A stretch of DNA of 64,000 nt, taken from IMG/VR virus record IMGVR_UViG_3300031134_000004, positions 1-64,000 of that record. One strand, 5' to 3'. Below, in pieces: positions 6,981 to 21,930 of the stretch. The number at the start of each line of letters is the position of its first letter. Position 1 is the first letter of the stretch. The translations under genes were made by a program, and so were the position numbers. The notes under the pieces were generated by a model that was not told the origin of the DNA, made no database searches, and was given only the letters and a program-made list of their open reading frames with translations. This DNA comes from a virus (taxonomy: Duplodnaviria; Caudoviricetes).

Positions 6981-7021
6981 GCGTCATAAAAGGCTGGGGA
7001 ATTCCCCAGCCTCTATGCCGT
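6981..7021. terminator. Bidirectional hairpin, family member
   Basis: GCGTCATA-aa-AGGCTGGGG-aatt-CCCCAGCCT-c-TATGCCGT between convergent genes. Confidence 0.75.
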
Positions 7022-14866: not shown

Positions 14867-14884
14867 AAAATGTAGTATAGTGTG
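14867..14884 (+). promoter_or_regulatory. Putative promoter of ncRNA-1
   Basis: AAAATGTAGTATAGTGTG is 15/18 identical to AAATTTTAGTATAGTATG at 19211-19228. Confidence 0.5.
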
Positions 14885-15630: not shown

Positions 15631-15690
15631 CAAAATGAAATCAATAAAAACTACACACAACAATCGTATAGTGGTTACAACGGAGCCGTC

Positions 15691-16074
15691 ATGAATGAAC
15701 ACCGCGCCACCTTAATCCAAGATATCCGTGAATACCTTGGCATCCTCCTACCTGTATTGCGTCCGATCTTAGAACAATACGCCTACACTGGGATTGATGA
15801 AGAAAGCGCCATCAAGTGGATCATCACCGAAGAACTCGAACTGATCCACTGCATGTGCGCCAACAACCATATTCGCAGTAACACTTATGAGCGCATCTAT
15901 TCGCAGCTCAATAGTGACTTACCACAGTCGTTGTCGATTCTCACGAACCAATACATCCGTGCACCTAGACTGTACGATGAGTCGTGTATCGACATCCATT
16001 TACATGAGCGTGATTTGTACATCGGGTACTTCTCGCCACCACCTCCTTTCGTTCAATACGAACCTCTGATATGA
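15691..16074 (+). CDS. Small protein, array member 1 (127 aa)
   Basis: GGAG RBS; C-terminal IHLHERDLYIGY. Confidence 0.7.
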   Translation: MNEHRATLIQDIREYLGILLPVLRPILEQYAYTGIDEESAIKWIITEELELIHCMCANNHIRSNTYERIYSQLNSDLPQSLSILTNQYIRAPRLYDESCIDIHLHERDLYIGYFSPPPPFVQYEPLI

Positions 16075-18399: not shown

Positions 18400-18790
18400 T
18401 GAAGAAGACACCACAAGGCACCCCGATGCGCCTATGAGAATCATCGTTCCGACCGAGGACATTTTCAAGGCGTTTCATCAAAGTACTGACAACCAAGTGT
18501 TTAGCACCGACTTGTACGAAATCGTCACCCAAGTCATCGTTATCCTTCTTAACAATACGGTCAATAACGTCGATGCCTTAAATGGCTTACCGTTACTTGA
18601 TCGTATGACTGACGAACGCTTTCATTCAGACACAGCGTTTGAACAGAAAGTGCGTCTTGCGACAAACACTATGGCGTGGGAAATCTATCGGCGCGTTAAG
18701 GCACTAGGCATTCACTACGAAGGCATCTTCTCGTATTTCTTCGATGGGTTTGTTGGCCAAGACATTGTGTTGTACAATTTCCCTTATTAA
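18380..18790 (+). CDS. Array member 7 (136 aa)
   Basis: C-terminal FSYFFDGFVGQDIVLY. Confidence 0.7.
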   Translation: MADNDVDEEDTTRHPDAPMRIIVPTEDIFKAFHQSTDNQVFSTDLYEIVTQVIVILLNNTVNNVDALNGLPLLDRMTDERFHSDTAFEQKVRLATNTMAWEIYRRVKALGIHYEGIFSYFFDGFVGQDIVLYNFPY

Positions 18791-18807
18791 CTTTGACTGG
18801 ATGCATT

Positions 18808-19212
18808 ATGCTTAACCTTCCTGACCTTAAGAACAAAGTCACGTATAACTTCGACGTGTACCCAACTGCCTTCATTGGCAACAACTATAAGAACGTGACC
18901 GTATTGGGCACCATCACCCGTGAGATGGCCAACATGGAAATCGACACGGCAGCGCTGCACATCCAATGCTTTAACACGCTGCCTGCGGGTACACCGAATG
19001 ATCCAGATGCGTACGACTACGTCAAGCTGCGCTTCCCTGACGGCAGCACAACCGTCATTGGCTTGGCCTGGATCAAACCAGAAACAGTTGAACTGATCGA
19101 CGCCCGTGTCATTACGGTCAAGATCGGCGGCCGTACGCCTGCTGACTTGGCCCGCATCAAAAACATCCTGGTGCAAAACGGGTTAAACGATCTGGAATTT
19201 AGTATCAGCTAA
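18808..19212 (+). CDS. Conserved phiKZ-like hypothetical protein (gp49-like position), 134 aa
   Basis: Beta-rich (TYNFDVYP...NYKNVTV); last gene before the DNA polymerase as in phiKZ synteny. Confidence 0.65.
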   Translation: MLNLPDLKNKVTYNFDVYPTAFIGNNYKNVTVLGTITREMANMEIDTAALHIQCFNTLPAGTPNDPDAYDYVKLRFPDGSTTVIGLAWIKPETVELIDARVITVKIGGRTPADLARIKNILVQNGLNDLEFSIS

Positions 19213-19228
19213 ATTTTAGTATAGTATG
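19211..19228 (+). promoter_or_regulatory. Putative promoter of ncRNA-2, ending in TATG
   Basis: Ends in TATG, the phiKZ late-promoter core with G as +1; this G is the first base of the predicted closing stem. Confidence 0.55.
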
Positions 19229-19600
19229 CAGAACCATGGAGAAGAGTTTTTTTACTGGCTTGCCCCCATGATTTGCGACAGAGGCGTGACACGTCTTGGT
19301 TGCTGTGCTTAGCGTTTCGTGCTAGAACGTTAGGTAGAGAACTTTCAATAACCAGTTACCCCTCTGGGTGTTGAAAGGATGTTAGGGCAATCAAACTTTC
19401 CATTATCGCTACGGGATTTCACTTCCTTGTTTGACCGTATCGATAGCAACTCTTTGGCTGGATGCGAGGGTCAGGTCTGCGTCTCCCCCGACGCACATAC
19501 CCCTTTCGGCGTCGCTCGAGAGTTGGAGAGGGTGGTTGTTCTGCTGGGAAAAAAGGGCTATTTAGGGAGAGGATCGAAAGGTCTTCTCCCATTTTTTTTT
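19228..19600 (+). ncRNA. Candidate structured ncRNA-2 (about 370 nt) with its own terminator
   Basis: 5' GCAGAAC (19228-34) pairs with GTTCTGC (19538-44); internal stems CATGG/CCATG, TATCGCTACGG/CCGTATCGATA, CAACTCT/AGAGTTG, TGCGTC/GACGCA; terminator at the 3' end. Confidence 0.68.
19565..19600 (+). terminator. Intrinsic terminator
   Basis: GGGAGAGGATC-GAAA-GGTCTTCTCCC followed by a T9+ tract. Confidence 0.85.
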
Positions 19601-19719
19601 TATGCCCCCAAAATAGGCTTCGGCCTTTATGCCGTATCTTTTTTTATTTGTCTAGCTCATGGAAAACAAAGAAAAATTATCGAGCGGGCTCATGGTGTAG
19701 ACCAAACAAGGAGCCGTTC

Positions 19720-21930
19720 ATGTCTGACGAAGTTCTCGATAATAATCCCTTCGTACTCCCTAAGCCAGAGTACACCCGCGACATCGCGGTGATTCGCCAT
19801 TACATCAACGATGGCGCGCTGTATTTGCACAAAATGTCGGGCAAGCCACTTGAACAGTGCGAAGCGTTTATTCGCGAAAGCTTGCAACCGGGTGGTCAGT
19901 TCGAATTTAAAGATCCTGAAGTTCACTTCCTGCTGCGTAAAGACAACGGCGATCGCGTCAAAGCCAAGACCACGCTGTCGAACTACATTAACGATGCAGT
20001 CAAGAACAATGAACTCATCGCCCCAACCTTAACGACGTATTTGCCAGCCTCGAAAGTCAGTTCGCTGTTGGTGGACTTCATTGACATCAACGTCAAAAAG
20101 CGTGGTGTGGCAAAGAAGGCCCAGTTCAAAGCCATGATGGCAGGCGACAAAGAAGTCGAGACGCTTAAGAAGGGTGAGCAAACAACGTACAAGCTCGGGA
20201 ACAACTCGATCTCCGGTGCCCACGTCTCAGCTTCGACGCCACTGTTTAACCGCACGGCGCACAGCACCTTGACGTCGAACTGCCGCTCGACTTCGGGTTA
20301 CGGTAACGCCAACAATGAAAAGTTCCTGTGTGGTAATCGCCACTACTGGAGTCCTGACATCGTTCGGGCAAATATCATCTCGATTGTGAACCATACGAAC
20401 TATCCGCAGATGGAAGCGGCGATGCAAAAGTTCGGTATCCGTGTTCCGACCGTGGATGAAACCATGCAAGTGATCGAGTATTCAGCCAAGCTGTACTGGA
20501 ACGGTCAAGACCAGTACGACCGGGTCCGTGAACTTGTCAATACCTTGACTGACCTGGAACGTGCTGCATTTGTCTACACGGGCGACCTGTACCACTTGCG
20601 TCAGTTTAACGATAACGTAGCGCGTCAATTCATCGACAAGCTCTCACGCCGTGTTGCGGACCGTACGTACGACGATCCTGATGCGATCATCACCAGTACG
20701 TCAGAAGACAGCCACCACTTGGCTACGCAAATCTGCTGCAATGAGATGCGCGGTAAGACGCTTGGTAAGAATGTCCACACTGGCAAGTACGAAGTCGAAG
20801 AAGGCGACAAGAAAAAGCCACGTCTGGAAGCTGCCGATAAGCACGCGCGTTTGATGATCGTCACGGGCACCATCGAGAACATTGACAATGTCTTGAAAGA
20901 GTACTGGGACTTGATCCGTGCATTCTGGGTAACGCCAAACATTCCTGCTTCAGTCGCTGTGTTCCCTGACAGTATCCGCCGCTCGGCCGTCACGTCAGAT
21001 ACTGACTCGACCATCTTCTCGGTGCAAGACTGGGTCATGTGGAGCGAAGGACGCATTACGTTCACCGACAAAGCCATGGGTGTGGGCGCTTCGATGATCT
21101 TCTTGGCAGCGCAGACCATCACGCACGTCTTGGCTCGCATGTCGGCGAACTTTGGTGTCGAGCAAAAACGCTTGAACCAGATTGCCATGAAGAACGAGTT
21201 TTACTTCCCGGTCTTCGTGCCAACCCAAGTGGCCAAGCACTATTACGCCAAGCGTTCGGTGCAAGAGGGTAACGTGTTCGGTGAGATGGACATGGAGATC
21301 AAGGGCGTTCACTTGAAATCCTCGAACGCACCGAAAGAAGTCATGGATGCGGCCAAGGACATGATGGACTTTATCATGTCGTCTGTCTTGCGTGAAGAAA
21401 AGATCAGCATTAACAAGATCATGACTGACATCGCTAACATCGAACGTAGCGTCATCAATTCGATTAAGCGCGGTGGTCACGAATACTTCCGCAAGGGTCA
21501 GATCAAAACGCCAAGTTCATACGTCGATGGCGAGACGGCCACGCCTTACCAACAGTATCTGCTCTGGCACGATTGCTTTGCGTGTAAGTACGGCGAGATT
21601 CAAGAACCGCCTTACATGTCGATTAAGATCTCGGCAGACTTGTCGTCACCGGCCAAGACGAAAGAATGGTTGCGTAAGATCGAAGACAAAGCACTTGTTG
21701 AACGTATCGAACGCTGGATGGATCGTCAAGGTAAGAAGCACTTGGGTACAGCCTTCATGTTGCCTGAACAAGTCTTGCAACAAGGCGGCATCCCAGAAGA
21801 AATCCTGGCTGCTGTTGATGTGCGTAAGATCGTGCTCGAAACCACCAAGGTGTTTTACCTCGTCCTCGAAACGCTTGGTATCTACATGCTCAATGGCAAA
21901 ATGTCGCGCTTGTGCGTTGACACTCACTAA
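19720..21930 (+). CDS. Family B DNA polymerase, polymerase-containing half of the split enzyme (phiKZ gp50-like)
   Basis: YKLGNNSISG (motif B-like) and SDTDSTIF (motif C); AACAAGGAG RBS before ATG 19720; 736 aa. Confidence 0.88.
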   Translation: MSDEVLDNNPFVLPKPEYTRDIAVIRHYINDGALYLHKMSGKPLEQCEAFIRESLQPGGQFEFKDPEVHFLLRKDNGDRVKAKTTLSNYINDAVKNNELIAPTLTTYLPASKVSSLLVDFIDINVKKRGVAKKAQFKAMMAGDKEVETLKKGEQTTYKLGNNSISGAHVSASTPLFNRTAHSTLTSNCRSTSGYGNANNEKFLCGNRHYWSPDIVRANIISIVNHTNYPQMEAAMQKFGIRVPTVDETMQVIEYSAKLYWNGQDQYDRVRELVNTLTDLERAAFVYTGDLYHLRQFNDNVARQFIDKLSRRVADRTYDDPDAIITSTSEDSHHLATQICCNEMRGKTLGKNVHTGKYEVEEGDKKKPRLEAADKHARLMIVTGTIENIDNVLKEYWDLIRAFWVTPNIPASVAVFPDSIRRSAVTSDTDSTIFSVQDWVMWSEGRITFTDKAMGVGASMIFLAAQTITHVLARMSANFGVEQKRLNQIAMKNEFYFPVFVPTQVAKHYYAKRSVQEGNVFGEMDMEIKGVHLKSSNAPKEVMDAAKDMMDFIMSSVLREEKISINKIMTDIANIERSVINSIKRGGHEYFRKGQIKTPSSYVDGETATPYQQYLLWHDCFACKYGEIQEPPYMSIKISADLSSPAKTKEWLRKIEDKALVERIERWMDRQGKKHLGTAFMLPEQVLQQGGIPEEILAAVDVRKIVLETTKVFYLVLETLGIYMLNGKMSRLCVDTH

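Follow-up and report, generated by a model that had tools for sequence, protein, structure and literature searches.

A probable stand-alone structured RNA with an anti-Shine-Dalgarno-like loop between the SH3DP and DNA polymerase genes of a chimallivirus-like jumbo phage

What occupies the 507 nucleotides (nt) that separate the gene of a small SH3-fold protein from the DNA polymerase gene in an uncultured chimallivirus-like jumbo phage? The gap lies at positions 19213–19719 of the window, a 64-kb stretch of DNA that forms the first part of the 224,654-base IMG/VR virus record IMGVR_UViG_3300031134_000004. The upstream gene encodes SH3DP, an SH3-fold protein associated with phage DNA polymerases, and the downstream one a divergent family-B DNA polymerase (divDNApol); the same two neighbours stand side by side in phiKZ, as gp49 and gp50, and in 152 phage records. 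An earlier reading of the DNA letters, referred to here as the original prediction, placed a structured RNA of about 370 nt in the gap and left a choice between a stand-alone transcript and an attenuator or riboswitch-like leader of the polymerase gene. The analysis presented here indicates that the RNA is very probably a separate gene, that is, a stand-alone structured non-coding RNA (ncRNA). Its most conserved part, a loop resembling the anti-Shine-Dalgarno (anti-SD) sequence of 16S rRNA, had not been mentioned in the original prediction.

The first line of evidence is the fold. The minimum free energy of the region 19228–19600 is -142.4 kcal/mol (z = -4.7 versus dinucleotide shuffles). Metagenomic relatives found by a search with the polymerase protein (82, 80, 78, 65 and 64% identity) keep a gap of 469–508 nt between the same two genes; counted together, six relatives with 60–82% polymerase identity retain about 500 nt at this place. 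In alignments of these gaps conserved blocks alternate with variable ones, a 26-nt stretch, GGGAUUUCACUUCCUUGUUUGACCG, being wholly invariant. RNAalifold predicted 83 pairs for six homologous sequences. The cells of this alignment are paired in 86% of cases, compared with 46%–50% when the partners are slid by one to three columns, and 45 of the 83 pairs show compensatory changes, compared with 12–21 for slid partners. The original prediction of a structured RNA ahead of the polymerase gene is thus largely confirmed. Numerous G-U pairs, like the orientation of the terminator, place it on the plus strand, and a minus-strand RNA was rejected on these grounds.

Covariation in the orthologous gaps upholds most of the internal stems of the original prediction, i.e., CATGG/CCATG (helix H1 in Table 1), GAGGCGT/ACGTCTT (H2), TATCGCTACGG/CCGTATCGATA (in RNA, UAUCGCUACGG/CCGUAUCGAUA) and CAACTCT/AGAGTTG enclosing TGCGTC/GACGCA. 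CTTTC/GAAAG is found as 19345–49 with 19373–77 in H4, where the upstream CUUUC is used, and in place of the proposed ACCC/GGGT stem the comparative fold has CCAG/CTGG. Seven of the 12 pairs of H1 carry compensatory changes, and its loop GUUUUUUUACU is invariant among close relatives. The stem of H2 can be recognised as far out as Burkholderia phage FLC9 and L002 (L numbers designate related loci), and CCCC in the loop of H4 is retained in six relatives. Inside the composite 3' hairpin an invariant GAUGCG (19461–66) pairs with GGCGUC (19508–13); the outer helix and an inner hairpin (19478–19495, loop UCCCCC at 19484–89) covary (CUCU/AGAG, CCUC/GAGG, CCU/AGG, AACU/AGUU), and the inner loop of relatives reads UCCCCUU, UUCCUU or AUCCUU. 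The stem proposed to close the whole molecule fared differently. TATG at 19225–19228, GCAGAAC at 19228–19234 and GTTCTGC at 19538–19544 are all present at the positions given by the original prediction and the latter two can pair, but the 7-base-pair (bp) stem is intact only in the window and in L010, is reduced to 5 bp in L011 and is absent from L013, L016 and L017, and the minimum-free-energy fold uses just 3 bp of it. Conservation of this stem in relatives, which had been set beforehand as a test, therefore failed, and the stem is no feature of the family.

The second line of evidence comes from public RNA libraries. Three of them, from three studies (two phyllosphere metatranscriptomes and one freshwater-sediment transcriptome), yielded one contig each of at least 99% identity, spanning 19246–19556 (depth 86), 19284–19472 and 19362–19555, although contigs of this kind give no ends, strand or level. 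The flanks 18600–19245 and 19557–20400, compared together with the RNA, are covered by none of the three RNA contigs, and a DNA run extends through both flanking genes. Such an RNA-only signal from a non-coding block in three studies appears to be the expected trace of a stable, abundant ncRNA. No RNA runs are listed for the polymerase gene, which says nothing about its expression. All four runs share A19439G, which converts a U-A pair of the main hairpin to U-G and is neutral for the modelled structure. The RNA contig of run X4 departs from the window after 19556 and continues for 29 unrelated letters; either an assembly chimera or a strain whose 3' end differs may account for this.

The possibility that the gap codes for protein was rejected, as the longest open reading frames (ORFs) among relatives vary from 7 to 185 codons and are unconserved. 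An in-frame extension of the polymerase from 19462 was also rejected; it crosses the terminator and is absent in relatives. A search of the window with Rfam 15 gave no family match (the best, rimP, reached 22.8 bits versus a gathering threshold of 47, E = 0.87, over the terminator region), and none of 12 related loci reached an Rfam gathering threshold. ARAGORN found no tRNA or tmRNA gene in the window, and no Rfam intron matched there either. The nucleotide sequence of the gap found no match among 50,697 phage records, and blastn and nhmmer comparisons with distant relatives returned only weak matches in the 5' region, so that homology to these relatives is visible only in structure and motifs.

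The transcription signals postulated by the original prediction are conserved as well, and together with RNA contigs confined to the RNA they speak for a transcription unit with its own promoter and terminator. TATG is kept in seven of eight aligned relatives, and GTATAGTATGC is invariant in the four closest, the bases ahead of it being variable. Of 43 gaps, 20 have TATG at most 35 nt past the stop codon of SH3DP (about 13% expected by chance), and other lineages carry AATG or AGTG there. The late promoter of the phiKZ non-virion RNA polymerase has been defined experimentally as TATG with G at +1 (PMC4666361, PMC12809450); the RNA matches a phiKZ-type late unit by motif only, with G19228 as the presumed start. 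The GAAA-capped terminator with its run of T was recovered by a terminator scan, its position is conserved, and compensatory changes in its stem are found in L013, L016, L017 and L002.

Could the RNA nevertheless work in cis? In a leader or attenuator, transcription from TATG would end at the terminator or continue into the polymerase gene, and in the read-through RNA the anti-SD-like loop would sequester the polymerase ribosome-binding site (RBS), which lies some 280 nt further on. That most relatives have the RNA ahead of the polymerase gene and on its strand would suit such a role, as would the 11-bp pairing of the loop with the polymerase RBS and a possible 6-bp pairing of the loop UCUCCC (19484–89) with GGGAGA in the 5' arm of the terminator; L011 retains the latter pairing, in L010 and L013 it is weaker, and L016 and L017 differ. 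These points are met by a strong terminator with ten T that is followed by a second hairpin, by an intervening gene before the polymerase in Ralstonia phages RP31 and FLC1-1B, by the lack of a match to any riboswitch aptamer family of Rfam in the window and 12 related loci and, as a weak argument, by the lack of an RNA contig bridging into the polymerase gene. Moreover, in all eight aligned relatives CAT-NN-TGTAG lies about 20 nt ahead of the polymerase start codon, with AAAAAT(A/T)(T/C)C about 10 nt further upstream. This motif is similar to the element of phiKZ middle promoters, which has the form AAanTTACc and is centred near -24 (PMC4666361). Judged from its sequence, the polymerase gene seems to be served by a promoter of its own and a short leader, which argues against the leader or attenuator variant of the original prediction; we consider regulation in cis quite improbable. 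The pattern AAAAATTA(T/C)C, about 10 nt, CAT-NN-TGTAG also recurs at genome positions 181421 and 188545.

What, then, might a stand-alone RNA at this place do? The most telling element is the long hairpin that displays the anti-SD-like loop. Compensatory changes affect 11 of the 13 pairs of its stem, and the loop (19415–34) is invariant in close relatives and unpaired in the minimum-free-energy and the consensus folds alike. For a wider view, 80 further polymerase loci were taken from IMG/VR; 53 of 69 non-redundant SH3DP–polymerase gaps are at least 275 nt long. The feature that persists family-wide is a long hairpin with a 13–20-nt U-rich loop holding YUCCUU or the exact anti-SD, CCUCCUU; the sequence of the stem is wholly different from lineage to lineage. 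A strict hairpin scan detected it in 28 of the 69 gaps, at 1.2 per kb versus 0.2 per kb in the rest of the loci. The scan misses the window, L010, L011, L013, FLC9, L031, L039 and L049, which have a stem mismatch near the loop, and since it skips known carriers of this kind, the true share of gaps with the hairpin is about half. Many members have a second or third pyrimidine-rich loop, in the window UCCCCC and UUACCCCU.

Among cultured phages the hairpin is carried by Burkholderia phage FLC9 and Ralstonia phages RP31 and FLC1-1B. In the latter two a gene of about 605 residues lies between SH3DP and the RNA (L003 3898–5715, L004 3887–5710), and one or two small genes separate the RNA from the polymerase gene. 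The short-gap lineage L082 has a single hairpin with the loop AUCCUCCUUG, a miniature version of the RNA. The gp49–gp50 gap of phiKZ (L006 3921–4121, 201 nt) contains a terminator hairpin, TATG, two hairpins and a pyrimidine tail, CUUUCCUUUUCUUUUUU, and by these motifs looks like an unannotated miniature counterpart of about 100 nt. A covariance model, R1, built from the 3' half of the RNA found full-length matches only in six close relatives, with partial hairpin matches elsewhere, and no second copy in the window's own genome. The gap of L002, a relative of 58% identity, measures 835–850 nt and holds the RNA followed by an inserted 77-codon ORF with a good RBS (L002 2600–2900).

The loop is complementary to the RBSs of the phage itself. 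Its core CUUCCUUGUUUG can form 11 bp with the polymerase RBS CAAACAAGGAG, which ranks 12th among 227 gene starts by duplex energy with the loop. The commonest RBS 8-mer of this phage, AACAAGGA, is complementary to the loop; it occurs 46 times in the genome versus about 7 expected, and 36 of these copies sit 3–11 nt before the start of ORFs with 50 codons or more. A perfect antisense match to the loop of 9 nt or longer is present in 14.7% of RBSs (p = 0.0095 in a shuffle of the loop flanks that keeps UCCUU). The RNA thus exposes a conserved single-stranded seed complementary to the RBSs of its possible targets. Across 18 lineages the cognate duplexes between loop and polymerase leader have -10.9 versus -9.0 kcal/mol for non-cognate ones (permutation p = 0.002). 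UUUUU in the loop of L016 faces AAAAA in the leader, L049 forms 10 bp, UGUAAAGGAG, with flanks outside the SD included, L036 pairs over 11 bp, and L037 has an extension on the other side. When the comparison with RBS sets was extended to four further family genomes, with 100 kb analysed per genome, the cognate loop was the best of five against its own genome's RBS set in four of the five genomes and tied in the fifth. As read from the sequences, this co-variation of loop and RBS is suggestive, not decisive.

Our preferred explanation for the function, put forward tentatively and with somewhat less than even confidence, is that the RNA acts as an antisense repressor. G19228 would be the first base of the transcript, made from a TATG promoter such as the phage's non-virion RNA polymerase uses, and the terminator near 19600 would mark its end. 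The transcript is predicted to fold into four 5' hairpins, the long hairpin displaying the 20-nt U-rich loop with CUUCCUUGUUUG, and the composite 3' hairpin, leaving two more C-rich loops exposed. The exposed loops would pair in the cell with extended SD regions of phage mRNAs, of the form AAACAAGGAA/G, the mRNA of the neighbouring DNA polymerase being one target, and the pairing would occlude the RBS and lower translation. The effect would probably fall late in infection and shut down earlier messages, as suggested by a promoter of late type for the RNA and one of middle type for the polymerase gene, a timing drawn from phiKZ alone. Antisense action at an RBS is feasible, because 11-nt antisense oligomers directed at the SD/RBS or AUG silence phiKZ mRNAs (PMC12571901).

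A number of observations weigh against repression by antisense pairing. Many of the matching RBSs belong to probable late structural genes, for which late repression would be odd. Any pyrimidine-rich loop complements the SD core, the AAAC before the SD derives in part from the TAA stop codons of tightly packed operons, and the covariation of loop and target is confounded by base composition and shared ancestry. In the four other genomes the flank-shuffle p values are 0.03, 0.49, 0.07 and 0.84, which makes the test significant in two of five overall. L034, L043 and L056 pair with the polymerase RBS over 5–6 bp only, a mismatch between loop and target in L011 is uncompensated, and the annotated polymerase starts of RP31 and FLC1-1B lack a matching RBS. 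The library contigs carry no information on the 5' and 3' ends, strand or timing of the RNA. Finally, a conserved structure of about 370 nt exceeds what a seed-bearing small RNA needs, which suggests further partners. A genome-wide duplex scan gave no single best target, its top matches lying in coding regions without clear meaning, and the temporal class of the promoters of the AACAAGGA genes is unassignable, as most such RBSs are internal to operons.

Further partners could be proteins. In a rival explanation, the RNA is a protein-binding scaffold or decoy, whose anti-SD-like, C-rich and U-rich loops mimic the 3' tail of 16S rRNA or other pyrimidine-rich ligands; candidates are the ribosomal proteins bS21 and S1, Hfq, an RNase and phage proteins, for instance the SH3-fold protein encoded by the adjacent gene. 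Such a role would account for a large, highly conserved RNA of many hairpins that is always found beside the SH3DP and polymerase genes, for the two or three pyrimidine-rich loops per molecule, which recall multi-site sponges, and for the exact anti-SD loop CCUCCUU of L021, L024, L031, L054 and L082, and it has a parallel in OLE RNA, whose anti-SD mimic binds bS21 (PMC12054373). The loop of the window itself, however, is CUUCCUU rather than CCUCCUU and fits the AAGGAA RBSs of the phage better than mimicry of the 16S tail, and in some genomes the loop flanks follow the RBS flavour of their own genome, which a mimic of a universal tail need not do. We regard this explanation as rather unlikely.

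The same complementarity might serve a positive end. Rather than repress phage mRNAs, extended-SD pairing could label them, so that they are shielded from nucleases, handled in a particular way once exported from the phage nucleus or loaded onto ribosomes in preference to others, a sorting role that we hold to be improbable. The loop complements the commonest RBS word of phage genes, probable structural genes included, and the AAAC part of this word is unable to pair with 16S rRNA, which ends at the anti-SD. The seeming abundance of the RNA, with a depth of 86 in one metatranscriptome and the flanking genes absent, would also fit. A duplex over the SD should, on the other hand, block binding of the 30S subunit, AAAC is largely derived from upstream TAA stops in tight operons, the covariation evidence is modest, and we know of no precedent for such a role. 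A broader variant, to which we attach an equally small probability, casts the RNA as a second anti-SD acting in trans: the loop would read the extended RBS word that is specific to the phage, AAACAAGGAA/G, in which AAGGA alone is able to pair with 16S rRNA, and thereby select phage messages, whose fate may be protection, hand-over from the phage nucleus to the ribosome or preferential initiation. If true, nucleus-forming jumbo phages would widely employ an RNA component to take over translation.

A role in replication, with the RNA as a primer or an R-loop-forming origin transcript comparable to ColE1 RNA II or to the origin transcripts of T4, is very remote. The constant position by replication genes and the stable structure are the sole points in its favour; GC and AT skew show no inflection near 19 kb, the strong terminator and the conserved single-stranded loop are unlike primer RNAs, and nothing ties the RNA to DNA.

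The coordinates of the RNA, its elements and its neighbours are collected in Table 1.

Table 1. Position of the RNA, its structural elements and the adjoining features in the 64-kb window
Feature	Position	Strand	Evidence or remark
SH3-fold protein associated with phage DNA polymerases (SH3DP)	18793/18808-19212		PF20287
Promoter-like motif TATAGTATG; TATG 19225-19228, G19228 presumed first transcribed base	19220-19228	+	
ncRNA transcript, about 370 nt (inferred)	19228-19601	+	Covarying fold, RNA-library contigs, no conserved ORF, no Rfam match
Helix H1, 19231-43 with 19263-74, CATGG/CCATG, conserved U-rich loop GUUUUUUUACU	19231-19274	+	
Helix H2, GAGGCGU/ACGUCUU	19281-19297	+	90% of cells paired, 2 compensatory pairs
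Helix H3, long hairpin, loop UUUCGUG	19303-19339	+	11/15 pairs compensatory
Helix H4, C-rich loop UUACCCCU at 19356-19363	19342-19377	+	7/11 pairs compensatory
Anti-SD hairpin, stem 19404-14 with 19435-45, 20-nt loop 19415-19434, core CUUCCUUGUUUG 19422-19433	19404-19445	+	
Composite 3' hairpin, outer helix CAACUCU/AGAGUUG	19447-19525	+	
GUUCUGC, 3' arm of proposed closing stem	19538-19544	+	Partner 19228-19234; both arms present
Intrinsic terminator, 11-bp stem, GAAA loop (hairpin 19565-19590), then ten T	19565-19601	+	Terminator scan
Second hairpin GGCUUCGGCC, then TTTATGCCG	19616-19634	+	
Promoter-like motif of the polymerase gene, AAAAATTATC, 9 nt, CATGGTGTAG	19672-19700	+	In all 8 aligned relatives, recurrent in genome
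Polymerase RBS CAAACAAGGAG 19703-13, start codon 19720	19703-19722	+	
Divergent family-B DNA polymerase (divDNApol)	19720-21930	+	PF20286, E = 5e-246; Pfam match from residue 15

Comparison of the SH3 protein places Burkholderia phage FLC9 and the Ralstonia phages RP31 and RP12 nearest among cultured phages, at less than 46% identity. The small proteins encoded upstream have no recognisable kinship to SH3DP or to any Pfam family, and an RNA–protein module is unsupported.

Past the terminator TTTATGCC is retained in relatives, and the second hairpin belongs to a set of 35 genomic hairpins that each have TTATGCCG behind them. The genome contains TATGCCG 37 times, 35 times directly after a G+C-rich hairpin, i.e., as a hairpin and then (C/T)TTATGCCG between genes; examples in the window are at 7014, 15623, 19628, 23433 and 55074. 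Downstream of phiKZ gp49 a hairpin and then TTTTATG stand in the same arrangement. From its sequence context, the hairpin with (C/T)TTATGCCG may be a combined junction of terminator and TATG promoter. The motif ahead of the RNA, TAGTATAGTATG, is near-identical to TAGTATAGTGTG (14872–14884), which precedes the other large ncRNA of the window, after phuZ. GTATAGTG precedes the gene at 15691 (15666–15673) and is also found at 71730, 133475 and 39101 (minus strand). Motifs of the TAGTATAGTATG, TAGTATAGTGTG and GTATAGTG type may constitute a putative promoter class of their own. The extended RBS word (U)AAACAAGGA(A/G) is unusually uniform and stands at 36 gene starts, e.g., 13851, 35361, 46554, 94098, 112852, 120141 and 159157. 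ACAAGGA resembles what we take to be the binding consensus of CsrA/RsmA, and host Rsm proteins might bind such sites.

Nucleus-forming jumbo phages are intensively studied, but their ncRNAs are almost unknown, and the published candidates are short and without assigned function. The family described here offers a fixed position, cultured carriers for bench tests in FLC9, RP12/RP31 and FLC1-1B, a stand-alone RNA signal in environmental libraries and an invariant anti-RBS loop. If the loop pairs with RBSs, it would provide RNA-based global control of phage translation, an RNA counterpart of RegA and RegB of T4, and the RNA would be a target for antisense knock-down and possibly a tool for phage engineering.

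How does this RNA compare with known systems? Neither Rfam nor the publications that were searched describe an RNA at the SH3DP–polymerase locus or a jumbo-phage RNA with an anti-SD loop. The small RNA candidates of phiKZ and 201phi2-1 also come from chimalliviruses and combine a transcription start with a closely following terminator; they are short (less than 250 nt), intergenic or derived from 5' untranslated regions (PMC11512511; PMC8244752), and the conserved chimallivirus candidate sits before a tail gene, not before the polymerase gene (PMC11512511). OLE RNA is likewise a large conserved ncRNA with an anti-SD-like sequence, and its P6 element mimics the anti-SD/SD duplex and binds bS21 (PMC12054373). 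It is, however, a cellular RNA of Bacillota in which the anti-SD is paired within a stem, whereas the RNA described here is phage-encoded, shows no homology to OLE and presents the sequence in a single-stranded loop. GOLLD and ROOL share with it a phage-borne location, a high degree of structure, abundance in RNA libraries and a function not yet assigned, but they measure about 600–800 nt and have their own Rfam models and other architectures; neither matches here.

RNAIII and RsaE of Staphylococcus aureus are multi-hairpin regulatory RNAs with C/U-rich anti-SD loops. The RNA described here resembles them in being very probably stand-alone, several hundred nt long and made of many hairpins with its own terminator, and in having two or three pyrimidine-rich apical loops complementary to SD regions. 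It differs in being phage-encoded, in its fixed position before the polymerase gene and in its much longer U-rich loop, and no relationship in sequence or in Rfam connects it with them. The c4 antisense RNA of phages P1 and P7 is about 77 nt long, is processed from a precursor in the immunity operon of a temperate phage and has one defined target. Like c4, the RNA of the window is phage-encoded and is predicted to pair, through an exposed loop, with RBS regions of its own phage's mRNAs; unlike c4, it is about 370 nt long, is encoded by a lytic jumbo phage and could act on many targets. RNAIII-like multi-hairpin RNAs and c4 are its closest analogues by way of working, and it is a member of neither group; we regard it as a new RNA family, probably with a familiar mode of action.

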